DNA of 64,000 nucleotides from Pseudomonadales bacterium (GCA_045105115.1 JBGCDE010000207.1:20290-84289), one strand, 5' to 3'; positions 6,001-63,004 are shown, numbered from the stretch's first letter. Notes: a model not told the origin generated them from the letters alone. Numbers and translations: made by a program.

Positions 6001-9000
6001 TTCTCTATGCCTTCCAACCTATCGACAAATCCGAAACCATCGTCATTGGCACGCAAATTAGACAAGTCAACATTGACGCCATTTACCAACGACAAGGAGC
6101 TGTAGCTTGCGGTATCGACTGTTCCAGCGTGATCGCCACCAATCAATGTGTCAGCACCTTGCAGACCTGCAAGCACATCACTGCCATCTTCACCGCGCAA
6201 TATATTGACCGACGAGTCACCTGTGATCACGTCGCCTTGATCTGAGCCGATGACATCATTTATGTTTATCAAGTCATCTGAAGAACCGTCACCGTCCTGA
6301 AAGGCTTGACCTGCGCCCAAATCGACAATAATTGCACCGGCTTCACTGTAGTCTGCGATATCACGCGACGCACCCGTACCACCATCAAGCGTATCCTGGC
6401 CTCCACGACCACGCAGTATGTCAGCACCCAAACCGCCTTCCAGCAAGTTTCCGCCAACATTATTGTCACCATAAATCAGGTCATCACCATCTGAACCAAT
6501 AATGTTCTCGATATCAATCAGAAAATCTGACGCACCATCACCATCATCACTAGTTCGACCAAGCACCATGTCAACTTCAACACGTGTGTTAGAATTTTCG
6601 TAACTTGCCGTATCAGAGTGATTGCCACCTCGCAAGGTATCTATGCCACCGCCGCCTTCCAGCGTATCACTGCGATTGCCACCATCGAGAACGTTGGCAT
6701 TGGCGTCACCGCGAATCAGATCGTCCTCACCAGTACCGACAACGTTTTCTATACCCTCAAGAACATCTACACCACCATCACCGTCCTGAAGTGCACGCTC
6801 AATGCTAAGGTCGACGGTTACACCCGTACCAGCTTGACTGTAATTTGCAGTATCTACCGTTCCAGCTTGATCACCACCACGCAATGTATCATTGCCAGCG
6901 GCACCATACAGGTCGTCATTACCATCACCACCTTCAAGAACGTTTTCCTGGCCGCTACCAACAATCGTATCGTTGTTGTCTGAACCAATAACATTTTCAA
7001 TAGTTTGCAACTGGTCTGAAGAGTTATCACCATCATCAATAGCCGCACCCAAACCACCACCAACATCAAGGTCTACATTGACCGCATTCGCTGCATCGGA
7101 ATAATCTGCGGTATCAATGTCATTGCCACCGATCAATGTGTCTTGTCCACCCGCACCAATCAGGGTGTCGAATCCATCAGCGCCATCAAGTACGTTATTA
7201 TTTGCATCACCGGTCAATAAATCGTCGCCAGAAGAACCAATGACGCCTTCAATTTCGATCAATGTGTCGATTCGGCCAAAGCCGTCTTCGGTTGCCAGCC
7301 CATCACCGAGGTTAACGGTAACTGCGCCACCCGCAGAATAATCGGCAAAATCGATATCACCATCGCCAACATCGCTGCCGCCATTAAGCGTATCGGCCGC
7401 GGCGCCACCGGCTAATGTATCGTTGCCTTCGTTACCTAAAAGTTCGTTGCTTTCCAGGTTACCTGTAATTTCATCGTCGTTCGCTGAGCCCCATACGTGC
7501 TCAATATTAAGCAGGGTATCGCTGGCCAAGTCGCCATCATTGCTGGCTTCTTCGTTGCCAAGGTCAACGACAATACGACTGCCGACAGAGCGATAATCCG
7601 CGACGTCATCAACACCGGCACCGCCGTCCAGAGTGTCGTTGTCACCGCCACCGCGCAACACATCAGCACCAACCTCACCGCTGATAATATTTCTGCCGCT
7701 GCCGCCACTTAAGGTATCGTCGAAGCGCGAACCACTTAAGTTTTCTATGTCGACAAATGTATCTTCTCCAAACGTGGTTCCTGAAATCAAGTCGCCGTCA
7801 TTGACGGCACGGCCAAGGCCCAAATCGGCCGTTACGGCTGCGCCAGCAAGAGAATAGTCGGCGGTATCCGAACCAAGCGCGCCACCATCAAGAGTGTCAT
7901 CACCAAGACCACCGCGAAGATTGTCATCACCTACTTCACCAAATAGAACATCATTATTCGCGCCACCAAATAGAGTGTCGTCATTGCCTCTGCCCCAAAA
8001 GGTGTTTGCTTCGTCATCACCAATAAGTACGTCAGCACCGCTTGTTGCAACAATGTTCTCAATTTCTCTAATGGTGTCAGTATCGCCACCACCACCGGTT
8101 ACCAGTACAGCACCGGAGCCAGCGCCTTGGAGAATGGCCTGAATATTCTGCACCCCAAGCAAATTCTCGTAGTTCGCTGTATCAACTTGATTACCACCAA
8201 TTAAGGTGTCACGCCCTGCGCTGGCGTTGAAGGTATCAATGCCGTTAAGGCCTTGAAATTCGTTGTTTTCAAGGTCACCAGTGAAGGTATCTGCGCCATC
8301 AGTACCGATAACGTTTTCAATGTTGGTAACCGTGTCGTCGTTCGCTGTGCCAGTGCGATCAATCAGGCCCGGCGCGGAACCTTGTAAGGTAACCGTAATT
8401 GCCGATGCCAGTGACTGGGAATAATCGATGGTGTCGCGGTCATCGCCACCGTCTAGGGTGTCAGCGCCCTCAGAACCCGCGATATTGTCTTCACCATCCA
8501 GTAAGTTAACTACGTCGGCACCGCTCGAACCAATTAATTGGTCTGCTTGGTTAGTGGTGAAATACTCTTCGAAGTTATTAAAAGTGTCTTGCGAACCATC
8601 ACTGGCGTAGTCAGCCGTAGACGCCGCCAGATTAAGCACCACACCGGTATTATCAAGGTCGTCAAAACGCAGCACGTCATTTTCAGGCCCTGCAACGGTA
8701 TTGGTACCACCATCGAGAGTGTCAGAACCGCCACCACCGAAAATTACGTCGTTACCTTGCTCGCCTCTGAGCTCGTTGGCCGCTGAATCGCCGGTAATTC
8801 TGTCGGCGGAACTTGAGCCGGTTACGTTCTCAATACTGTCAAAAGTATCCTGACCCGAGTCACCGTCAGCAGTTGCCCCTGGAATAACCGCGGTCATGTC
8901 GACTGTTATACCCGACCCCGCATTGGTGTAATCAGCAGTATCTCTGCCAGCCCCACCGAATAAAGTATCGTTACCCGCATCACCACGTAAGGTGTCGTTG

Positions 9001-50135: not shown

Positions 50136-51383
50136 TTGAGTATTATCGACCGCCTGGACAGGCGACTACTGCCACTAATTATTTTGCTCGGTTTACTACT
50201 GATAGCGGGCCTGTTTTATGTCAATGAACCAGCGCCCGCACGATCTGCTCCCGCCAGGCCAGCCCCTATTGCTGTTGATGTCATGCCTCTGGCGCTTGAA
50301 AATATTGAGATTAAGGTTGAGAGCTATGGAACCGTGCAACCGCGTACGCAAAGCATGCTGGTAGCTCAGGTTTCCGGGCAGATTACCAAGGTCAATTCCG
50401 CATTTAGAGACGGCGGGTTTTTTAACAAGAACGACGTATTGCTGGAAATTGACCCACGCGACTACGTCGCGAACGTCAGAATTGCCGAAGCCAGTCTGGT
50501 AGACGCACAGCAAGTTCTCATGGAGGAGACCGCCAGAGCCGAGCAGGCTTCAAAAGACTGGCAGCGACTTGGACGTGGCGAAAAACCCAGCGACCTGGTG
50601 TTACGTAAGCCGCAGATGCTGGCAGCAAAAGCACGTCTTGCCTCAGCCAGCGCAAATTTGGATAAGGTACGACTGGATCTGGAGCGCACTAAAATTCGTG
50701 CGCCCTACGCAGGCCGAACACTAAAGAACCTTGTTGATCTGGGTCAGGTTGTGTCTATGAATGCGCAACTAGGCGAGATATACGCAACCGATGCTGTAGA
50801 AATTCGATTGCCAATACGAAACCGTGACCTAGCCTACGTAAGTCTGCCCGAGCGATATTCAAATTCGCAACTCGAATCCAGCGATCTACCCAAAGTGGTA
50901 TTGACTTCACAGCTTACTGGTAATGAATCCTGGGAAGGAGAGATTGTGCGCACTGAAAGTGCAATTGACACGAATGCGCGTCAATTGCATGTGGTCGCAA
51001 AAATTGATGAACCTTTTGCCGCAGGTGAGCAAACAGACAACGAGCAACCACCGACACGACCGATAAAAATTGGCGAGTATGTAAATGCGTTTATTACTGG
51101 AAAAACTATGGAAAACGTATTATCCATACCAGTTGACGCGATCTACCAGAATAGCTATGTGTACACAGTTGTAGACGGACTTCTGCAGCGTCAAGATATC
51201 AACATCACCTGGAGAAGTGGTGAGCGGGCCGTTATTCAATCTGGTTTGGCAGAAGGTGACCAACTGGTACTCACTCCACTCGGTCAAGTAACTTCAGGTG
51301 TGCGGGTTACACCGAACGAATTCCAGCCGCAAACCACCGCTGAAGTGCAGGAAAGTCGTAAAGGTCGAGATTCAGGCACATGA
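50136..51383 (+). CDS. RND efflux periplasmic adaptor (membrane fusion protein)
   Basis: 415 aa with a TTG start and a GAGGAA 6 nt upstream. It has an N-terminal TM anchor, an HlyD-like coiled-coil region, and a 4-bp ATGA overlap with the pump gene. Confidence 0.85.
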   Translation: MSIIDRLDRRLLPLIILLGLLLIAGLFYVNEPAPARSAPARPAPIAVDVMPLALENIEIKVESYGTVQPRTQSMLVAQVSGQITKVNSAFRDGGFFNKNDVLLEIDPRDYVANVRIAEASLVDAQQVLMEETARAEQASKDWQRLGRGEKPSDLVLRKPQMLAAKARLASASANLDKVRLDLERTKIRAPYAGRTLKNLVDLGQVVSMNAQLGEIYATDAVEIRLPIRNRDLAYVSLPERYSNSQLESSDLPKVVLTSQLTGNESWEGEIVRTESAIDTNARQLHVVAKIDEPFAAGEQTDNEQPPTRPIKIGEYVNAFITGKTMENVLSIPVDAIYQNSYVYTVVDGLLQRQDINITWRSGERAVIQSGLAEGDQLVLTPLGQVTSGVRVTPNEFQPQTTAEVQESRKGRDSGT

Positions 51384-54300
51384 TTAATTGGTTTATTCGC
51401 AATACAGTTGCCGCCAACTTGTTGATGCTCTCAATCATTATCGGGGGCTTGTTGGCCTTTTCTGACAAGGTGTTGCTGGAGGTTTTTCCAGCGGGTGATT
51501 TGCGCATGGTGACGGTATCAGTACCACTGCGCGGTGCCACTCCAGAAGATGTAGAACTGGGCATTGCCGTTAGAATTGAAGAAGCGGTCCAAGACCTGGA
51601 GGGTGTTAAGGAAATAGTCAGCACCTCAGCCGAAGGCTCTACGAGCATTTCCATAGAAATCACGGAGGGTTATGACGAGAGAGAATTTCTAGCCGATATA
51701 AAGTCTCGCGTTGACGCCATCAACACACTTCCGGCAGATGCCGAAAAACCGATTATCAGTCTGGCGCAGTTTCAGTATTCAGTGATTGATCTGGTGGTGT
51801 CTGCAAATCTGCCGGAGGTAGAGCTTCGCACTTACACCGAACAAATTCGCGATGAGATTCTTCGAATTGATGGCATATCAGTGGCTGAAATTCAATTTGG
51901 GCGTAACTATGAAATTAATATCGAAGTCTCACAAGATAAATTGCGCGACGCGCAGCTAACGCTGTCAGATGTTGCAAATCTTATCCGGGAAAGTTCTCTG
52001 GATATATCTGCAGGCAATCTGCGTGCGCAAGGCGGTGATGTGCTAATTCGCTCCAAAGGGCAAGCCTATCGTAAGAACGACTTCGAATCGATTGTTGTCA
52101 AAACCAATTCAGACGGTTCAATTCTGCGAATTGCCGATATCGCTGAAGTGCGCGACGGCTTTGAAGAAGACAGTATTAGCTCGCGCTTCAATGGTAAGAA
52201 AACACTGTTTGTAAAAGTGTATCGTGGCAGTACAGAAGGTGCACTGGAAATCGCGAAAAACGTTCATCAATACATTGCCGACAAACAATCCAAACTGCCC
52301 GCAGGTGTAGAGCTCAGTTACTGGGATGATGACTCTGAACTCCTGAAATCGCGGCTAGGCACCTTAGTGAGTAATATCTGGCAAGGCGGCCTGTTAGTCA
52401 TATTGTTGCTCACGCTGTTTCTGCGCCCAGCGGTATCTTTCTGGGTTTTTATTGGTATACCTATTAGCTTCATTGGCGCATTTATGGTGCTGGGCTTTCT
52501 TGATGTCAGTATTAATATGATGAGCTTGTATGGCTTCATATTAGTATTGGGCCTTGTAGTAGACGATGCGATTGTGACCGGGGAGAGCATTTACACCTCA
52601 TTGGCTGAACACGGCCCGGGGGATCATGCGGCCATTGAGGGTACGCATCGGGTGGCTATTCCCGTGACGTTTGGTGTACTAACCACTATCGCTGCGTTTA
52701 TGCCTTTGCTTGCACTTGACGGTCATATGTCGCGAATGATGGCGCCAATCCCCATTGTAATTGGCTCAATTCTTATGTTCTCGCTGATTGAGAGCAAATT
52801 TGTACTGCCTGCCCATTTGAAGAACATTGATGTACGCCGACAAAATAATGCTAATGAGCGTAGTAGCTGGTTTCGTCGCTTTGAGTTGTGGCAGCAAGAT
52901 TTTGCCGACGGATTCGAGCAAGCCATTATCAGATATTACAAACCAGCGCTCGAAGTAGCTATCAAGAATAGATACAGCGTGCTGGCTGCATTTATTGGCT
53001 TGTTCGCGCTGGCATTGTCTCTGCTATTAAAAGGTTGGTTACCCTTTACCTTTATGCCACGCATTCCCGCCGAAACGGTAGCGGCAAGCCTTACCATGCC
53101 GGTTGGCACTCCGTTTCAGGTCACCGACCGACACATAGCGCGAATTACTGAAGCGGCCGAGCAAATACGCGAAAAATACACTGACGCCGACGGCAATAGC
53201 GCAATACGCCACATCCTGTCGGTCAGTGGCGGCACAGGCCGAGGTGGTGCGGCAACGCATAGGGGTACGGTGGCCATTGAAACGGTGCCATTGACAGAGA
53301 GAACGATTCAGTTAGACCCAGCGGAAGTGACCCGCGAATGGCGAAAACTGATAGGCCCGGTGGCCGGTGCTGAGTCATTAAATATGCGCTCTGAATTGTT
53401 TCGCTTTGGCGACCCAATAAATATTCAACTGAGTGGGCATTCACTGGATACGCTGGGCAAGGTAGCCGATCAAGTTAAACAGCGACTAGCCAGTTATCCA
53501 ACGGTATTCGATGTATCAGATTCGCTATCTGATGGTAAAGACGAGCTGCGCGTTGAACTGACCGACCAGGGTACAGTACTAGGCTTAACCCGCTCGAGCA
53601 TTCTCAGGCAAATCAGCGAAGCATTTCGCGGTTTTGAAGCGCAGAGAATCCAGCGCGGTCGAGATGATGTGCGGGTTCTGGTACGGCTACCAAAAAATGA
53701 AAGAAGCAATCAAGATACTTTAAACGAACTACTGATGACCACACCCGATGGCCGGCAGGTGCCGCTTGCGCATGTTGCCGAGATTTCGCCATCAACCGGG
53801 CCATCAACTATTCGCCGCGTAGACCGCTATCGCGTAGTTAATGTGATGGCCGATTTCGATAAGAAGAACACCAATGCAGTTACACTCAATGCCGATCTTG
53901 GTCAGTTTCTGGATGAATTGCTGGCCCAATACCCTGGCATCAGTTACTCCCTGCAAGGCGAGGCAAGAGAGCAGCGGGAAACAACTGAAAGCTTGAGCGT
54001 TGCCTTAGTCGCATTGCTGTTTTTGATTTATTGCCTGTTGGCATTACCACTGAAGTCTTATACCCAACCTTTGATTGTGATGTCTATCATCCCCTTCAGT
54101 TTAATCGGCGCGGTTATTGGTCACATGATAATGGGCCAATACTTCGCAATGGTCAGTTACATGGGTTTGCTCGCGCTGGTGGGTGTTGTAATCAATGACA
54201 GTCTTGTGCTCGTCGATTTCGTTAACCAAAGCAGCCGCAAAGGTATGAAACTATTTGATGCCGTGAGCAATGCCGGTCCGAAGCGATTTCGTGCGGTCAT

Positions 54301-54526
54301 GTTGACCTCTGTAACAACTTTCGTTGGATTAATGCCGATGATGTTTGTAAGCTCAACCCAATCTTTGTTTATGATCCCGATGGCCATTTCACTTGGCTTT
54401 GGCATTCTATTCGCTACAGCTATCACGCTGTTTCTGGTTCCGTGTAATCTGTTGATCGCAAATGATATGGGTAACGGTTTAAGGAGTTTGTTCGGTCGAA
54501 GCAGAAACACCGAAGTCGCCTCCTAA
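51380..54526 (+). CDS. RND efflux permease (AcrB/AcrD/AcrF family)
   Basis: 1048 aa with the typical 12-TM, two-large-loop RND layout. The N-terminus reads MINWFIRNTVAANLLML. Confidence 0.9.
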   Translation: MINWFIRNTVAANLLMLSIIIGGLLAFSDKVLLEVFPAGDLRMVTVSVPLRGATPEDVELGIAVRIEEAVQDLEGVKEIVSTSAEGSTSISIEITEGYDEREFLADIKSRVDAINTLPADAEKPIISLAQFQYSVIDLVVSANLPEVELRTYTEQIRDEILRIDGISVAEIQFGRNYEINIEVSQDKLRDAQLTLSDVANLIRESSLDISAGNLRAQGGDVLIRSKGQAYRKNDFESIVVKTNSDGSILRIADIAEVRDGFEEDSISSRFNGKKTLFVKVYRGSTEGALEIAKNVHQYIADKQSKLPAGVELSYWDDDSELLKSRLGTLVSNIWQGGLLVILLLTLFLRPAVSFWVFIGIPISFIGAFMVLGFLDVSINMMSLYGFILVLGLVVDDAIVTGESIYTSLAEHGPGDHAAIEGTHRVAIPVTFGVLTTIAAFMPLLALDGHMSRMMAPIPIVIGSILMFSLIESKFVLPAHLKNIDVRRQNNANERSSWFRRFELWQQDFADGFEQAIIRYYKPALEVAIKNRYSVLAAFIGLFALALSLLLKGWLPFTFMPRIPAETVAASLTMPVGTPFQVTDRHIARITEAAEQIREKYTDADGNSAIRHILSVSGGTGRGGAATHRGTVAIETVPLTERTIQLDPAEVTREWRKLIGPVAGAESLNMRSELFRFGDPINIQLSGHSLDTLGKVADQVKQRLASYPTVFDVSDSLSDGKDELRVELTDQGTVLGLTRSSILRQISEAFRGFEAQRIQRGRDDVRVLVRLPKNERSNQDTLNELLMTTPDGRQVPLAHVAEISPSTGPSTIRRVDRYRVVNVMADFDKKNTNAVTLNADLGQFLDELLAQYPGISYSLQGEAREQRETTESLSVALVALLFLIYCLLALPLKSYTQPLIVMSIIPFSLIGAVIGHMIMGQYFAMVSYMGLLALVGVVINDSLVLVDFVNQSSRKGMKLFDAVSNAGPKRFRAVMLTSVTTFVGLMPMMFVSSTQSLFMIPMAISLGFGILFATAITLFLVPCNLLIANDMGNGLRSLFGRSRNTEVAS

Positions 54527-55897
54527 AGCGAGATAAAAGCCAATACGGTTCTTCAATAATTCGGTTTCCAACTGCAACAATTGGCTTTGTCTATCAAATG
54601 CGGTGCGCTGCGCTTGCAACCATGTATTCAGGTTACTCAAACCGGCAACGTATGACTCAAATGCCTGCTGCTCGGCTTGCTGCGATATTTGATCAGCACG
54701 CCGAGCTGCTGCCAAGCGCTCTTTGAAGAGTATTTCATTGTCGATGCTTTGCTCTACTTCGCTAATGGCCGTTAGCAATGTGCTCTTGTATTCAGCAGCA
54801 TTGGCGTTTAATAGTGCCATTTGTCTGCGCTGCTCAGCCGCTAACTGCCCGCCTTGAAATAACGGCGCTGTAATGCCAGCGACCGCGCTCCAGAAAATGT
54901 CATCGCCATCAAGCACATCGCGTAAACTTCGATTGCTGGCGCCATAAGAACCGCGCAAATTCAGAGCTGGAAGGCGATTTGCTTTTGCAACCCCAAGATT
55001 AGCTTGCTGGCCGATCAAGGCATGCCGGCCGGCGACAACATCCGGCCGCCTTTCCAGCAGTGTAAGAGGTAACTGTTTTGGAATATCCATACGCAACGCG
55101 GGCGCACTACCCGGAAGCGTCATTGTATTTCCAGGATAGCGGCCAAGCAGCACTTCCAACTGGCGTACCAGGCTTTGATAATTTTGCTGCCTAAGAACGG
55201 TGTTGGCTTGTGATGCATCCGCTTCAGCACGTGCGGAATACACATCCAGAGCATCGCGAATACCGGCGCCAAATCCATTTTCGATAATATCAAGATTATC
55301 GCGAAGGTTTTTCTCTCGCTGCTGGGCAAGACGCCATTGCTGCTGAGATTCAATAGAATCCAGCCAGGTACGGGCAATTTGCGCAGACAGGGAGAACTGC
55401 GACCAACGTAGTAACTGCTGCTGCTGCAAAGCCGTGTTGATCGCCGCTTTCTGACCCAGTGCCAACTCACCCCAGAGATCAACTTCCCAGCTCGCCGATA
55501 CGTTGCCGCTCACGGTTTCAGTGATCGCACTTCCCGCGGTGGTGAATGCCGTGCTGGCTCGCTGCTGTCGATTACCATCTAGAGCTGCACTTACCGCTGG
55601 CCAACGGCGACCGCTGGCTATTCTGGCTTGTTCAAATGCAGCGTTGCGGCGCGCTATTGATACCTGCAAATCAAGATTGTTTAGCTGCGCCTCGTTAATG
55701 ATTTCTGTCAGCGCAGGCGAATCGACAAATTCATTCCATACGAGATCGGAGTTTGCCAATTCATCGCTGCTCCAGCCGGGAGCAAGTTCGCTGGCTTGCG
55801 GCACGGTCTCAGCTGCGGGTTTATCTAATAATGGCGTGCAGGCAGTCAGACCGCCAATAACGCTTGCAACGATAATTCTGAGCGAAGAACGAACCAC
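54479..55897 (-). CDS. Outer-membrane efflux lipoprotein (NodT/TolC family)
   Basis: 472 aa with a GTG start, lipobox LTAC and a duplicated OEP coiled-coil pattern. It is convergent with the RND pump gene, and their 3' ends overlap by 48 nt. Confidence 0.85.
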   Translation of the reverse strand: MVRSSLRIIVASVIGGLTACTPLLDKPAAETVPQASELAPGWSSDELANSDLVWNEFVDSPALTEIINEAQLNNLDLQVSIARRNAAFEQARIASGRRWPAVSAALDGNRQQRASTAFTTAGSAITETVSGNVSASWEVDLWGELALGQKAAINTALQQQQLLRWSQFSLSAQIARTWLDSIESQQQWRLAQQREKNLRDNLDIIENGFGAGIRDALDVYSARAEADASQANTVLRQQNYQSLVRQLEVLLGRYPGNTMTLPGSAPALRMDIPKQLPLTLLERRPDVVAGRHALIGQQANLGVAKANRLPALNLRGSYGASNRSLRDVLDGDDIFWSAVAGITAPLFQGGQLAAEQRRQMALLNANAAEYKSTLLTAISEVEQSIDNEILFKERLAAARRADQISQQAEQQAFESYVAGLSNLNTWLQAQRTAFDRQSQLLQLETELLKNRIGFYLALGGDFGVSASTEQTP

Positions 55898-56715: not shown

Positions 56716-58053
<1,338 letters not shown>

Positions 58054-58087: not shown

Positions 58088-58519
58088 TTACTGATAGATG
58101 ATGTCGGGTCGCAGTTTTGCTAGTCGCGCCAGCAGCTGATTGCGCACAGCAAGGCTCACTTCATTTTGATCCAGGGCTTTTATCAGAAGATCTACCAGCC
58201 CGTTGAAGTCTGACTCACTTACATTCATGCCACCGTGCACCAGCAACATCGTATCACCGGAATAATCACACGGCCCATCGCTGATCTCGCATAAATACTC
58301 GATCAGTTTGTCTCTAAACCGCGACATATTCGTGTGCTCGAAATGCTTGTGAACATCGTGATTTGTCGGATGCAATAGCAGCATCGCATCTACAATTCTG
58401 GTAATACCTTGCAAGCCATGAAGCTGATCGTATAACGGTAGCTTGGCGCCGTGTGCGAAAACACTTGTCAAAAACAGGCCCGCGAATATCAGGGTCTGAA
58501 GTTCTGGCTTGTTTTTCAT
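58088..58519 (-). CDS. Group 1 truncated haemoglobin (trHbN-like) with a predicted signal peptide
   Basis: 143 aa. The signal peptide is MKNKPELQTLIFAGLFLTSVFA, with cleavage before HG. The globin pattern is LYDQLHGLQGITRIVD ... DGPCDYSGDTMLLVHGGMNVSESDFNGLVDLLIKAL, with the proximal His in the LVHGG context. Its start overlaps the upstream stop as ATGA. Confidence 0.7.
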   Translation of the reverse strand: MKNKPELQTLIFAGLFLTSVFAHGAKLPLYDQLHGLQGITRIVDAMLLLHPTNHDVHKHFEHTNMSRFRDKLIEYLCEISDGPCDYSGDTMLLVHGGMNVSESDFNGLVDLLIKALDQNEVSLAVRNQLLARLAKLRPDIIYQ

Positions 58520-59340
58520 AAACTGAGCTGCACAGACAAATACATACCATTCTGACCAGGAACACCTGCAATCGAGCCTAAATCAACATAGGCGCCTGTG
58601 ACCGAGAAACGCTTGCTAATAAAATAGGCTATCCAGAAATCCTGCCAATCATCTTCACCAAGCCCAAGATTGTCTGGCTTCTGACGATACTCCATACCGA
58701 TCGCCAGTTTTCGCGTAAGGAATACACCGGCCGCTAACTCAAGCTGCAGCTTATAGTCATTAGAGCTCTGACCACCGAATCCCAAGATGCCCGTTTGGTT
58801 AGCCTTGGTCAACCTGGCGGTAGCATTTAGCAAAGTCGTTCGATGAAACACGCCATCCAACCATACCTTTGTGGCGGCCAGGTACACGTCAGTGCCTGTA
58901 TCGTCTGCAGCCCCAACCGAAAATGCTACGTCTGAATCCTGCAAACGTTTATGCTGGATGCCAATCGACAATTGTGGCGCGCTGCTAAAAATTGCATCAC
59001 CAAACACTCGGTATTTAACTGAAAAAATATTTTGTACTATGTGCGTGTCGCTGGCCTTAATTTCAAAATCATGGTGAGCATACACCACTTCCAATCTATT
59101 GTTGAAACCAACAGAAACGCCGGCAACATTCACAGCATAGTCATCAACAGTTAAATTACTGTAGAACGCAGCGCCGCCTAATTCGTCGCGCGTCGCGTAC
59201 CCACTAATCAATGCCCAGGGTACAATGCCGCCACCGCCGGCGCCCTCAATCGTCGATACGCCAGCTGTACCAATCAATTTTCCGTCAGCTTGCGCGACGC
59301 TGCTCAGCGTCAGCAGAGCCAGACAAAGAATTCTCTTCAC
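58516..59340 (-). CDS. Exported Gly-rich beta-rich protein, DUF3034-like (family name from memory)
   Basis: Contains GTAGVSTIEGAGGGGIVPWALISGY. I prefer the GTG at 59340 (VKRILCLALLTLSSVAQA, a signal peptide, with an AGGAAG upstream). The track start at 59367 is also a GTG. Confidence 0.6.
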   Translation of the reverse strand: MKRILCLALLTLSSVAQADGKLIGTAGVSTIEGAGGGGIVPWALISGYATRDELGGAAFYSNLTVDDYAVNVAGVSVGFNNRLEVVYAHHDFEIKASDTHIVQNIFSVKYRVFGDAIFSSAPQLSIGIQHKRLQDSDVAFSVGAADDTGTDVYLAATKVWLDGVFHRTTLLNATARLTKANQTGILGFGGQSSNDYKLQLELAAGVFLTRKLAIGMEYRQKPDNLGLGEDDWQDFWIAYFISKRFSVTGAYVDLGSIAGVPGQNGMYLSVQLSL

Positions 59341-61666
59341 CCTTGGTTCTTCCTTGAACAAATGCACTTTTGAATTCGAAGCTTCCCATCCACAACAGGA
59401 AGTCTTCGTAGGGCAGCGGCTTACTAAAATAAAAACCTTGTAGTTTATCGCAGCCCCATTGTTCTAATAGAGCCTGAGCTTCTGCGTCTTCAACACCTTC
59501 AGCAACTACCTTTAACCCAATATTGTGGGCCATCGCAATCGTGGATTTCACAATCACCTGATCACTGCTGTCCGTGCTTAGCTTGCGCACGAAACACATA
59601 TCAATTTTTAACTCATCAACCGGCAATTGCTTCATTTGACCCAGCGAAGAATAGCCAGTGCCGTAATCGTCAATCGCTAAAGTGAATCCTTGTGATTTGA
59701 AGCGATTGAGCACGCTGAGCGCCTTATCCGGGTCTTCCATCATGGCCGACTCGGTCACTTCCAGAATCAGGCGCGAGCTTGAATACTCACTATTGCTTAG
59801 CAGTGTATCCAGAAACACTGGCAAATCGTCATGCATCAAGTCATAAGCTGACAGGTTGATAGCCACTGATACATCATGACCAACAGACTGCCAGGCGCTT
59901 GCATCACGAATACCTCGCGTCAAAATCCACCGCGACAATGCTGGCATAAGCCCAGATTGCTCCGCCAGACCAATGAATTCATCGGGCGGAATAAATCCTA
60001 ATTCTGGATGAATCCATCGCACCAATGCCTCCACTTCGGTGACACCACGCTTTGCCACATTGATTTTTGGTTGGTAATACAGTGTCAACTGATCGGCTTG
60101 CATGGCTTGCTTCAAGTCATTGATCAGTCGAATCTGCTTCAAATGTTTTTGATCTTCGCCCTGCTCGTAGTATTCCGACTGGTGGCGTAATTCCAGCGCT
60201 CTATTCAACGCCATGTCCGAGCGCCGCAGAAGCTCTTCTGCCAGAAGACCGTTCTCAGGCGATCGCGCAAAGCCCAGCGTTAACGGTACGTTGATTTCGA
60301 AACCGCTTACCTCAAAAGGCTCAGACCAGGCCTGATGCAGATTGTCTGCAACTTGTTCGAGGCTTTCTTTTTCAGACAAAACATACAACAGGATAAACTC
60401 ACTCGCTGTTGAGCGACCAATAACATGCGGTGCTGGAAACAATTGCTGCCAACGTGCAGCACAAGCGCATAGCAATTTGTCACCTACAGCAAAGCCTAAA
60501 GAATTATTGATCGACTTTATGCGTTGAACGCTAATGCTGACGATTGCTACTTCATTTGTATTGTCACAATTGATAAGTTGTTGCAGATCTATGGCAATTT
60601 TATCTCGCACAGGAAGCTTGGTAAGTGCATCGTGATGGGCTTGATAAACAATTTGCTTTTCACGGCTGGCAACCGCAGATTGCATCTGATTAAAGCTGTC
60701 AGCGAGCACAGTGATTTCGGATCCACCAGCACGCACCAATTCAATAGGTGCGGTGTAGTCGCCACTGGCTATGCGCTGTGCACCATGCACCAACTTACCA
60801 ATTGGCTTGGTTATACCGCGAAGCATAGGAATCATAACCATTAAACAGCCAATCAAAATAACCGCACTAATAAGAAGTATTTGTAGTTTTAGTTGGTTGA
60901 AGCGGGCACGCTCTTCAGCCAGCGACACACTCAGAATCACTTTCAGATCCAAGCCATTGCTAAGAACAGTGGGTAAATGTGAGTATTCAGATTCATCCAT
61001 CGTAGACAATGTTTGAAGTTGCCTTGAATGTACGTCCGGTAAGGTGGTGACCAATAAGCTGCGCTGATTCTTTTGCGCAAAACTGACATCCAGCAATGTC
61101 ATCTGCTTCAAATTTTGCGCAAACGCTTTATCTATTTCATAGGCAATCACCGCCCAAGCGACGGGTGCCGGCGCACGAACCTGCACCATGACTAACTGAT
61201 AAGCCTTGTCTTCGAGCGTTGTCGTGGTCTGCACACCCGTTGCCGCTGCATCATCGGCGAGCATTTTTTGAATCAGCTCAGTGTGCGCTTCTGACTTAAA
61301 AGAGGTCGTTGATGCCAGTAACTCACCGGATAGATCAAATAGCGAAATCAGGTCAGCGTTAATACGCGCACCATGGTTTTCCAACACCGATTCAATCGTT
61401 GCTTTGTCACGCAGCGCTACGGCTTGCTTGAAACCAAAATCTGCGGTTAGCACACGCGCAGACTCCAACAGCTGCTTGCCTTGGTTTTCCAGCATCGATT
61501 CCAGAACAGAGCTACCAACCTGCAAGCGCGCATTTGCCTCTCGCTCAATATTATTGTCGGTTGCCGTAATAACAGCAATCAAAGTCGCACTACTGGAAAC
61601 GATCAGTAAACTCAATACAAGCAGCAAGAGTCGGGTATACAACTTAGCTTTACCCGAAGCAAACAT
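59285..61666 (-). CDS. Inner-membrane c-di-GMP phosphodiesterase: TM, ~240-aa periplasmic domain, TM, HAMP, degenerate GGDEF, intact EAL
   Basis: The GGDEF position reads RSTASEF and is degenerate. The EAL signatures are intact: EVEALVRW, DDYGTGYSSL, ELKID, AEGVE and QGFYFSKPLP. The HAMP-like region is PIGKLVHGAQRIASGDY ... LADSFNQMQ. Confidence 0.85.
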   Translation of the reverse strand: MFASGKAKLYTRLLLLVLSLLIVSSSATLIAVITATDNNIEREANARLQVGSSVLESMLENQGKQLLESARVLTADFGFKQAVALRDKATIESVLENHGARINADLISLFDLSGELLASTTSFKSEAHTELIQKMLADDAAATGVQTTTTLEDKAYQLVMVQVRAPAPVAWAVIAYEIDKAFAQNLKQMTLLDVSFAQKNQRSLLVTTLPDVHSRQLQTLSTMDESEYSHLPTVLSNGLDLKVILSVSLAEERARFNQLKLQILLISAVILIGCLMVMIPMLRGITKPIGKLVHGAQRIASGDYTAPIELVRAGGSEITVLADSFNQMQSAVASREKQIVYQAHHDALTKLPVRDKIAIDLQQLINCDNTNEVAIVSISVQRIKSINNSLGFAVGDKLLCACAARWQQLFPAPHVIGRSTASEFILLYVLSEKESLEQVADNLHQAWSEPFEVSGFEINVPLTLGFARSPENGLLAEELLRRSDMALNRALELRHQSEYYEQGEDQKHLKQIRLINDLKQAMQADQLTLYYQPKINVAKRGVTEVEALVRWIHPELGFIPPDEFIGLAEQSGLMPALSRWILTRGIRDASAWQSVGHDVSVAINLSAYDLMHDDLPVFLDTLLSNSEYSSSRLILEVTESAMMEDPDKALSVLNRFKSQGFTLAIDDYGTGYSSLGQMKQLPVDELKIDMCFVRKLSTDSSDQVIVKSTIAMAHNIGLKVVAEGVEDAEAQALLEQWGCDKLQGFYFSKPLPYEDFLLWMGSFEFKSAFVQGRTKGEENSLSGSADAEQRRAS

Positions 61667-61668
61667 CT

Positions 61669-62301
61669 TTATTGATCTCCACCGGCTACATTGATAGTAA
61701 CTATATGACTAAGCTGTACGCCGTTACTTGTCATGGTATTGAATTCTTTAGCCGCCAATTGGTCCGGATGCCAGTAACGAAGCGTGGTTGGTGATGACGC
61801 TGTTGTGTCAAAGCTAACTGTGCCGCTCTCATTACTCACGCCCACATGTTCGTGCTCAGCGACGTAAATATATCCAATCATGCCGTCGTGTATGTTGCAG
61901 CCAAGAGTCACCAAGCCCGCCGTATCAAACTTCATCGGCGCGCCTGGAACGCCTTTGTAAAGCTTGATCTCAAAGGTCTTAGCTGGCGAAAAGGAATACA
62001 CATGGTGGCGCACATTATCGCTATTGGGTAAAGCCACCTGACGACCTTTGCGTATGGCCAGCACTCTGGGTGCAAAACGTCTGTGTTTTTGGTCCATGAT
62101 CGCGGGTTGTGCTGCAACAGTGCGCACAGGTTCAGTCAGCAGTTCTACGACCGCGTCAGATAAAGGTTTCCCATGCTGGTCTACCACCGTGAACTCAATG
62201 GCAAACATAAGTTGGCTGCTTGATAACAGCAACACTGCGATCAACTGGCGGATACCGATCAACATTTTCATTCCTTTGCGCGAACGCAAAACTCGCATCA
62301 T
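61669..62301 (-). CDS. Exported cupredoxin-like protein (family usually annotated 'methylamine utilization protein')
   Basis: 210 aa with a signal peptide. Candidate type-1 copper ligands are RHHVYSFS and LGCNIHDGM (Cys-x2-His-x2-Met). There is a 2-bp gap to the next gene. Confidence 0.55.
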   Translation of the reverse strand: MMRVLRSRKGMKMLIGIRQLIAVLLLSSSQLMFAIEFTVVDQHGKPLSDAVVELLTEPVRTVAAQPAIMDQKHRRFAPRVLAIRKGRQVALPNSDNVRHHVYSFSPAKTFEIKLYKGVPGAPMKFDTAGLVTLGCNIHDGMIGYIYVAEHEHVGVSNESGTVSFDTTASSPTTLRYWHPDQLAAKEFNTMTSNGVQLSHIVTINVAGGDQ

Positions 62302-62396: not shown

Positions 62397-62705
62397 TTAG
62401 CGAGAGTGAGGCGGTATCGCCGAGAGCCTGGCAGTAAAATCGGCCAGCTCTTGCTGAGTATAAGGCGTGTGCACGCGGTTACACGAGGGTGGTTGATGGT
62501 CCAGGCTTACGCCGGAGCGATGTGCATTTTTCGGTCGGATTGGTCGCGGGGCAAAGCCACCGCCACAATTTGGGCACACGTTGTTCAGGACCTGAGCAAC
62601 ACAATCTGCACAGAACGTGCACTCATAAGTACAGATACGCGCTTGGTCGCTATCAGGCGGAAGGTCCCTGTCACAGGCCTCGCAATTTGGACGTATTTCC
62701 AACAC
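62397..62705 (-). CDS. DUF1272 zinc-ribbon-like protein
   Basis: 102 aa. MLEIRPNCEACDRDLPPDSDQARICTYECTFCADCV ... CPNCGG is the typical DUF1272 pattern. It has a GTG start and no purine-rich SD upstream. Confidence 0.65.
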   Translation of the reverse strand: MLEIRPNCEACDRDLPPDSDQARICTYECTFCADCVAQVLNNVCPNCGGGFAPRPIRPKNAHRSGVSLDHQPPSCNRVHTPYTQQELADFTARLSAIPPHSR

Positions 62706-62770: not shown

Positions 62771-62977
62771 TTAGCAGGGTACTACGTTGTTAGCGCATGG
62801 CCCTTTCTGGCCTTGACCAACTTCATATTCAACTTCTTGGCCGTCATCCAGAGTAGCGTAGTTGCTGCCGCTCTTGATTTCGGAATGGTGAACAAACAAA
62901 TCTTTGCCACCGTCTTCAGGCTTAATGAATCCGTATCCTTTGTCGGCATTAAACCACTTAACTGTACCTTTACTCAT
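62771..62977 (-). CDS. Cold-shock protein (CspA family)
   Basis: [34 protein letters not shown] carries the RNP1 and RNP2 motifs. I prefer the ATG at 62977, which has an AAGAGAG just upstream. The track ORF extends to 62995. Confidence 0.9.
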
Positions 62978-63004
62978 ATTACTCTCTTTACTCAACTATT
63001 TATC

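Follow-up and report, generated by a model that had tools for sequence, protein, structure and literature searches.

Here we describe a four-gene module of the bacterial envelope, in which a secreted cupredoxin, an inner-membrane phosphodiesterase (PDE) of cyclic di-GMP (c-di-GMP), a protein of the DUF3034 family and an exported truncated hemoglobin are encoded side by side. One copy occupies positions 58088 to 62301 of a stretch of 64,000 nucleotides, called the window throughout, that comes from a Pseudomonadales metagenome-assembled genome (MAG; GCA_045105115.1, JBGCDE010000207.1:20290-84289). The module is widespread, recurring in hundreds of proteobacteria, and full-text searches of the open-access literature returned no description of it or of DUF3034, although an earlier description elsewhere is possible. 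Its linkage across three proteobacterial classes, which persists even where the genes have been rearranged, is strong evidence of a functional link. The most economical reading is that exported redox proteins are linked to a periplasm-sensing PDE. Going a step further, the module may be a heme/copper redox or gas sensor that spans the envelope and controls c-di-GMP hydrolysis, comparable to YfiBNR, a proposal that comes from genomic inference and to which we give a little under an even chance of being right.

The linkage was followed through several collections of genomes. One genome per species was scanned with a DUF3034 profile, which gave at least 578 relatives; the best 80 loci were kept, and their six-frame open reading frames (ORFs) were searched with the four window proteins. 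The globin gene stands directly 3′ of the DUF3034 gene in 79 of these 80 genome loci, the remaining locus being cut at its end, and among 16 plasmid or chromid records with DUF3034, the globin adjoins it in 15 and the cupredoxin is present in 15. A metagenome scan with the globin alignment contributed only 3 loci. Together with metagenome contigs and the plasmid or chromid records, 98 loci entered the survey of arrangements, and the four genes co-occur in about 90-95 loci of Alpha-, Beta- and Gammaproteobacteria, at 35-55% protein identity and with differing flanks. A preliminary description of this locus, made from the window alone, had expected the neighborhood to be conserved, as it proved to be in about 95 loci of three classes; it had also taken the globin for an occasional addition to a trio of the other three genes, and in this it was mistaken, given how constantly the globin adjoins DUF3034. 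A search of the flanks for a fifth conserved gene found none, the best flanking cluster being present in only 14 loci.

Such a record bears directly on the simplest alternative, that the four genes are functionally unrelated and stand together by accident. Consensus scans of the locus for promoters and terminators, in both directions, found sites no more numerous than in shuffled sequence, and this lack of a clear pattern would suit unrelated neighbors. Against it stands the co-occurrence just described, which holds despite shuffled gene order, differing flanks and extensive divergence, so that we regard chance adjacency as extremely improbable and as effectively refuted by the survey.

The canonical order, cupredoxin-PDE-DUF3034-globin, is found in 77 of the 98 loci, and the departures from it are informative. 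The order is DUF3034-globin-cupredoxin-PDE in Burkholderia; a cupredoxin-PDE pair is divergent from a DUF3034-globin pair in Novosphingobium; and on two metagenome contigs (L094, L095) DUF3034 is divergent from globin-cupredoxin-PDE. Cupredoxin, DUF3034 and globin occur without the PDE in two loci (L044, L047), and DUF3034 and globin occur alone, with the upstream sequence complete, in three Granulosicoccus loci (L058, L072, L082). A Caballeronia plasmid carries DUF3034-globin-cupredoxin followed by a cache fragment, and a Comamonas plasmid carries DUF4394-cupredoxin-PDE without DUF3034 or globin. The rest are short contigs with a partial cluster (DUF3034-globin or PDE-DUF3034-globin) cut by the contig end, and one further locus without cupredoxin and PDE (L084) is uninformative, its upstream sequence being masked. 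In every arrangement that contains the PDE, including that of the Comamonas plasmid, the cupredoxin gene lies immediately 5′ of the PDE gene, while DUF3034 and globin are separated in most loci by -7 to +15 nt. The rearranged orders lead us to see the module as two units, cupredoxin-PDE and DUF3034-globin. From the loci without the PDE it follows that the envelope proteins probably have a function of their own, on which the PDE reports; taken together with the DUF4394 plasmid, these loci indicate that the envelope proteins are not mere accessories of the PDE.

Several individual loci deserve mention. The Comamonas locus (C. aquatica plasmid NZ_CP104280.1, 4949-8903) suggests that cupredoxin and PDE, as a pair, can be combined with another secreted protein. 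On plasmid pSBC1_4 of Caballeronia sp. SBC1 (6043-8435), the PDE gene is reduced to one for a 138-aa "cache domain-containing protein", and a second plasmid of the same strain holds another copy of the module. A MAG labelled Flavobacteriales (JBNMPD010000036.1) has a canonical module that shares about 49% identity with those of Gammaproteobacteria, which could reflect mis-binning or horizontal transfer. The module also occurs in genera that can be cultivated, among them Alteromonas, Pseudoalteromonas, Marinobacter, Colwellia, Methylophaga, Burkholderia, Caballeronia and Novosphingobium.

The product of the first gene had been described as a secreted protein with a cupredoxin-type ligand pattern, and both parts of that description held. 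Its gene probably starts at ATG 62265 (198 aa) rather than at ATG 62301, because AAGGA precedes the former with a 6-nt spacer and because an NCBI protein of 198 aa (P0128) is identical to the product read from there. The protein has a signal peptide ending in QLMFA/IEF and belongs to a family of about 2,350 clusters that sources name "methylamine utilization protein", the NCBI term, or "plastocyanin". Sequence and profile searches of the PDB with it gave nothing significant, the only match of the profile search being a cupredoxin domain of NirK (E 0.64). An AlphaFold2 (AF2) model built with 30 homologs is nevertheless of good quality (predicted local distance difference test score, pLDDT, 89.6; predicted template-modeling score, pTM, 0.84), and its top 50 Foldseek matches in the PDB are all cupredoxins or cupredoxin domains, led by amicyanin, Cupredoxin_1 (4hcf), plastocyanin and pseudoazurin. 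The predicted fold resembles amicyanin, plastocyanin and pseudoazurin with template-modeling (TM) scores of 0.55-0.76 normalized to the target, and unlike them it extends into a further β-rich region at the C-terminus (about aa 138-190 in the model). His99, Cys135, His138 and Met141 (210-aa numbering), the residues predicted to ligate type-1 copper, fall in the motifs RHHVYSFS and LGCNIHDGM and are invariant in 86 of 86 distinct orthologs and in all 30 of a smaller set. They form the pattern His...Cys-x2-His-x2-Met-x-Gly, and amicyanin has the identical spacing C-x2-H-x2-M-x-G. By its predicted fold and its ligand set the protein is a type-1 cupredoxin that curated sequence models miss, and it would carry a type-1 copper site. 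Unlike amicyanin, it has no methylamine dehydrogenase context, its partner gene being that of a c-di-GMP phosphodiesterase.

That partner, the second gene, encodes a protein with a first transmembrane segment (about aa 10-38), a periplasmic dCache_3 domain, a second transmembrane segment (about aa 259-282), a HAMP domain, a degenerate GGDEF domain and an intact EAL domain. This is the layout recognized in the preliminary description, now borne out by Pfam matches and motifs, with the family of the periplasmic sensor supplied by the dCache_3 match. Within dCache_3, a conserved patch reads L66..L73..D76-F-G-F79..A82..D87..T90..S93..L95..N97..R101..D105, its residues being at least 90% conserved in 80 orthologs, and a sequence search of the PDB with the periplasmic domain found no relative with a solved structure. 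Since the GG[DE]EF motif is absent and the GGDEF active site reads ASEF, an active diguanylate cyclase was rejected; orthologs have TGGEL, SGGEL, NGGEF, AGDEF or ASEF at this site, and only 4 of 80 keep the canonical GGDEF. The EAL domain has all its signature motifs (EAL, N, ExxE, DDYGTGYSS, KxD, EGVE and QG), and the catalytic motifs are kept in 80 of 80 orthologs. Comparison with named phosphodiesterases (DibA, DosP, GepA) gave partial matches only, all far below cut-offs, and judged by these scores the protein is not an ortholog of any of them.

The fourth gene encodes a truncated hemoglobin (TrHb) of group 1 with a signal peptide, as had been proposed. The Bac_globin family (PF01152) matches aa 29-140 with 40.7 bits against a cut-off of 21, and the PDB holds TrHbN relatives at E values from 4e-14 to 1e-4, the closest being SbHbN of Shewanella benthica (8tls/7tt9; E 4e-14 over the full domain). 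Its key residues are His95 (F8), Leu47 (B10), His50 (B13), Phe60 (CD1), Phe68 (E7), Leu72 (E11) and Leu108 (G8). The proximal histidine, His95, aligns with F8 of SbHbN and HbN and is invariant in 92 of 92 orthologs and in 108 of 108 nearest representatives, while the orthologs have I/V/L at B10, F/L at E7, L/F/M at E11 and Phe at CD1 in 89 of 92. The Tyr B10/Gln E7/Gln E11 network of high-affinity, enzymatic TrHbs is absent from the window protein. Hydrophobic residues at B10, E7, E11 and G8 and a preference for Phe at CD1 characterize TrHbN subgroup 2 (TrHbN-2), a "little-studied" group defined by SbHbN (PMC11904497), to which, on alignment, the globin belongs, presumably as a heme-b protein. 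SbHbN shares with it the proximal His F8 and the apolar B10, E7, E11 and G8, and in the window's clade also His B13; it differs in having no signal peptide (as crystallized and aligned; it is cytoplasmic), Tyr in place of Phe at CD1 and no second cysteine. It reacts with peroxides, contains extensive hydrophobic tunnels and forms an oxy complex as a Phe-CD1 variant; the paper reporting this makes no mention of a signal peptide, the periplasm, an operon or c-di-GMP (PMC11904497). Structures for SbHbN and TrHbN-2 are PDB 8tls, 7tt9 and 8ugz.

Export is a general property of this branch. The window globin has a Sec-type signal peptide; Tat export was rejected, there being no twin-arginine motif. 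In all seven closest homologs the N-terminus is hydrophobic and ends with a site of the AxA type. A signal peptide is found in 93 of the 96 globin orthologs from related loci, at least 60 of them with a lipobox, and in 98 of 108 nearest single-domain representatives (50%-identity clusters), 73 of them with a lipobox, while those that lack a signal are mostly fragments. Asp is absent from position +2 in the lipobox sequences listed, which by the E. coli rule predicts anchoring in the outer membrane. The globin would thus be soluble and Sec-exported in the window's clade and, in most other orthologs, a lipoprotein anchored in the outer membrane. Cys77 and Cys84 (Cys-x6-Cys) are invariant in 92 of 92 orthologs, and the pair would fit a periplasmic disulfide. 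Homologs were found mainly by exhaustive search of cluster representatives (1,684 matches), a word-index search giving only 7 because the protein is short; an exact-sequence look-up found no record of the window globin. Among the best relatives are also tandem truncated-globin proteins (P0248, P0251, P0256, P0263 and P0378), of which P0263 (1386 aa) has up to 10 Bac_globin stretches.

Between the PDE and the globin lies the DUF3034 gene, whose probable start is GTG 59340 (274 aa), the start used by an NCBI protein (P0008) identical to the product. The match to PF11231 is full-length (343.6 bits, profile positions 1-255 of 255), and the family, of about 2,700 clusters at 90% identity, has no relative that sequence and profile searches of the PDB could find. 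Behind a signal peptide ending in SVAQA/DGKL come a Gly-rich N-terminal segment of high conservation (GKLIGTAG..EGAGGGGIVPWA) and a predicted 12-stranded β-barrel. In the AF2 model, 12 long antiparallel strands are seen (pTM 0.69), and its top Foldseek matches are all outer-membrane barrels: FapF, the COG4313 channel 4rl8, OmpG, NanC and KdgM. FapF, COG4313, NanC and KdgM are the best structural matches (E 3e-6 to 3e-4, TM about 0.5) and similar in barrel size, and FapF and COG4313 are alike also in having an N-terminal segment outside the barrel wall; sequence identity to these four is only 7-14%, however, and the Gly-rich N-terminal motif has no counterpart in them. Of 97 orthologs, 71 end in W, F or Y; the window protein ends in Leu. 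Judging from the model, DUF3034 is most likely a 12-stranded outer-membrane β-barrel; the earlier picture of a secreted, Gly-rich, β-rich protein keeps its signal peptide and its family and gives way in this last respect.

A barrel encoded next to a globin, most often a lipoprotein and translationally coupled to it, might also suggest a pair for uptake or shuttling at the outer membrane, in which the globin-fold protein acts as a carrier for heme or a hydrophobic molecule and the PDE responds to the cargo. The structural matches of DUF3034 include COG4313, FadL-type and substrate-specific channels of 12-14 strands, the tunnels of SbHbN are extensive and hydrophobic, and Sec export implies that heme is acquired outside the cytoplasm. 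Known heme uptake, however, proceeds through TonB-dependent receptors with 22 strands, and the invariance of the type-1 copper site speaks for electron transfer and not for transport. DUF3034 lacks conserved His, Cys or Met for heme ligation, its invariant residues being charged or polar, and the flanks show no conserved transporter of the inner membrane, ABC or other. We consider a shuttle of this kind improbable.

More serious is the reading in which the three envelope proteins (cupredoxin, globin and barrel) work independently as a redox enzyme system of the periplasm, and the PDE either is just co-expressed or, making no contact with them, senses a small molecule through its dCache_3 domain, as dCache domains typically bind small ligands. 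Such a system might dioxygenate NO, remove peroxide or another oxidant, or reduce O2 as an auxiliary route; the cupredoxin would return the heme to its reduced state. The persistence of the three genes, or of the DUF3034-globin pair, in the five loci without the PDE would be expected here, as would the finding of cupredoxin-PDE with another partner, DUF4394; the reactivity of SbHbN with peroxides (PMC11904497) and the proposal that periplasmic TrHb domains of cable bacteria are O2-reducing modules (PMC11976967) lean the same way. On the other side, the PDE gene is embedded in 77 loci, with the cupredoxin gene before it, the barrel gene after it and junctions that overlap or leave 2 bp, and the adjacency of cupredoxin and PDE survives all rearrangements, which is hard to explain by co-expression alone. 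Nor is there a conserved reductase or cytochrome nearby that could feed electrons to the cupredoxin. We therefore hold an autonomous enzyme system to be possible, if rather doubtful.

In the envelope sensor that we favor, the globin would be located at or near the DUF3034 barrel, encoded immediately upstream and translationally coupled, where its heme ligation or oxidation state would respond to O2, NO, peroxide or another oxidant in the periplasm. The state of the heme would be relayed by electron exchange to the cupredoxin, which would engage the periplasmic dCache_3 domain of the PDE in a redox-dependent manner, and the HAMP domain would pass the change on to the cytoplasmic EAL domain, so that c-di-GMP hydrolysis is raised or lowered; the degenerate GGDEF domain would serve as a regulatory module. 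In this scheme the loading of the cofactors, the contacts between the proteins, the identity of the signal and whether regulation is up or down are all inferred. Signal peptides on all three of the other products count in favor of such a sensor, as do the linkage of the four genes, the invariant proximal histidine and copper ligands, the Cys pair of the exported globins, the conserved dCache_3 patch and intact EAL motifs of the PDE, and the barrel model of DUF3034. Its most explicit form, in which an exported, usually lipid-anchored globin docked at the barrel and a blue-copper protein together act in trans as a sensor of O2, NO or oxidants that controls the PDE through dCache_3, is put forward tentatively, as a candidate less likely to be correct than not.

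Several observations weigh against the sensor. The envelope proteins exist without this PDE, both in the five loci listed above and on the Caballeronia plasmid with the cache fragment, and the usual ligands of dCache domains are small molecules, bound directly. The apolar pockets of TrHbN-2, with a predicted low O2 affinity (PMC11904497), are no obvious fit to O2 or NO sensing; because the distal pocket lacks the Tyr B10/Gln E7/Gln E11 network, the proposed O2/NO chemistry is less certain. With no Tat motif, heme b would need to be loaded after export, for which cytochrome b562 offers a precedent. Confidence in the DUF3034 model is moderate (pLDDT 66), and the most conserved part of the protein, the N-terminal 50 residues, is missing from it; searches of Pfam and NCBIfam with the cupredoxin returned nothing above threshold, only a weak match to CarboxypepD_reg. 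The envelope input into c-di-GMP turnover that the preliminary description had suggested thus stands in part: the products, the export signals, the packing of the genes and the conserved neighborhood speak for it, while the globin is constant rather than exceptional, the module can exist without the PDE and the apolar pocket makes the proposed chemistry less certain. What can be read directly from the data comprises the gene anatomy, the domain identities, the fold predictions, the conservation of ligands and export signals and the four-gene linkage.

Control of this general kind is familiar. In the YfiBNR (TpbB) and LapD/LapG systems, outer-membrane or periplasmic partners control c-di-GMP enzymes through periplasmic domains, and the module resembles both in joining an inner-membrane c-di-GMP protein with a periplasmic sensor and HAMP to genes for periplasmic and outer-membrane or lipoprotein partners. 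The likeness is one of functional analogy only: the partners are not homologous to YfiR, YfiB or LapG and have predicted heme and copper cofactors, and the output is an EAL phosphodiesterase, unlike that of the cyclase YfiN. Identity with YfiBNR was rejected, as the DgcN/YfiN model matches only over HAMP-GGDEF, with 110.6 bits against a cut-off of 325. By analogy, then, partner proteins that control a c-di-GMP enzyme across the envelope are known in kind, and ones with heme and copper would be unprecedented.

Heme proteins linked to c-di-GMP turnover are also known, in the globin-coupled sensors (DosC, BpeGReg, HemDGC) and in the heme-PAS protein DosP, which aligns with the GGDEF-EAL part of the PDE. 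In these, a full-length sensor globin or a heme-PAS domain forms part of one cytoplasmic polypeptide. A globin-coupled sensor was rejected here because the PDE has no globin or heme domain and the globin is separate, exported and of the 2-on-2 truncated type. Searches of the open-access literature for periplasmic TrHb domains found them noted only as fusions to cable-bacteria cytochromes, pentaheme proteins whose TrHb domains are predicted to be periplasmic and are proposed to take part in O2 redox chemistry (PMC11976967). Those domains are fused to multiheme c-type cytochromes and found in cable bacteria only, whereas the module globin is a separate protein, in most cases a lipoprotein, whose gene is linked to those of a cupredoxin, a barrel and a PDE.

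To our knowledge, the heme-based c-di-GMP inputs described so far (DosC/DosP, globin-coupled sensors, H-NOX and NosP partners) are all cytoplasmic, so that an exported globin and a cupredoxin paired with a periplasm-sensing PDE would bring in redox or gas information by another path and, if the sensor is real, be the first globin-based input to c-di-GMP that acts from beyond the cytoplasm. DUF3034, the "methylamine utilization protein" family and the exported TrHbN-2 branch would then each acquire a function for the first time. Whatever its activity, the module supplies testable functional hypotheses for DUF3034, for these cupredoxins and for the exported, mostly lipoprotein globins, it raises the question of how heme b is loaded into Sec-exported or lipoprotein globins, and its presence in cultivable genera offers tractable hosts.

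The anatomy of the window copy is given in the table below. All four minus-strand ORFs were found where the preliminary description had placed them, and the tight packing that it noted (a 2-bp gap, an overlap of 56-83 nt and an ATGA overlap) could be read at all three junctions in the DNA; the overlap between the second and third genes is 83 nt if DUF3034 is counted from its first GTG (59367).

Table. Coordinates of the four genes, their junctions and domains in the window
Feature	Position	Strand	Remarks
Gene 1, secreted cupredoxin-like protein	61669..62301	-	210-aa ORF from ATG 62301
Gene 1/gene 2 junction	61664..61671	-	TAA-ag-ATG, 2-bp gap, from DNA reading
Gene 2, inner-membrane c-di-GMP phosphodiesterase (PDE)	59285..61666	-	793 aa; Pfam matches
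dCache_3 sensor domain, aa 42-201	61064..61543	-	PF14827, 38.9 bits, cut-off 25.7
HAMP domain, aa 282-330	60677..60823	-	PF00672, 43.6 bits
Degenerate GGDEF domain, aa 343-491	60194..60640	-	PF00990, 79 bits
EAL domain, aa 516-750	59417..60121	-	PF00563, 242 bits
Gene 2/gene 3 junction	59285..59340	-	56-nt overlap of PDE 3′ end with DUF3034 from GTG 59340
Gene 3, DUF3034 protein	58516..59367	-	283-aa ORF; PF11231
Gene 3/gene 4 junction	58516..58519	-	ATGA stop/start overlap, from DNA reading
Gene 4, exported TrHbN-2 globin	58088..58519	-	143 aa; PF01152
Globin Sec-type signal peptide, about aa 1-25	58445..58519	-	MKNKPELQTLIFAGLFLTSVFAHGA/K, read from sequence

The base composition of the cluster is uniform with its surroundings, and a search of the cluster for a riboswitch or other RNA element found none. 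Upstream, on the same strand and after a 95-nt gap, lies a gene for a Cys-rich DUF1272 protein (62397-62705, minus strand, 102.8 bits), which is not conserved beside the module in other genomes and is not part of it. Farther upstream, a match to the cspA thermoregulator (Rfam RF01766; 62719-63094, minus strand) scores 41 bits, below the gathering score of 78; it is located upstream of a gene for a cold-shock domain (62771-62995), likewise outside the module, and overlaps it. Downstream, a convergent gene (56716-58053, plus strand), which does not belong to the module, codes for what is probably a lipoprotein (LAACSGG) bearing an esterase domain of the BD-FAE/α-β-hydrolase type; the domain is preceded by a Pro-Glu dipeptide repeat (PEPEPE..., ~110 residues, about 56814-57149) that gives rise to long spurious ORFs on the opposite strand. 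Beyond it, a gene for an efflux pump of the RND type (51380-54526, plus strand) converges with an outer-membrane-factor-like gene (54479-55897, minus strand), functions judged from the translations only, and the two overlap by 48 nt at their 3′ ends.

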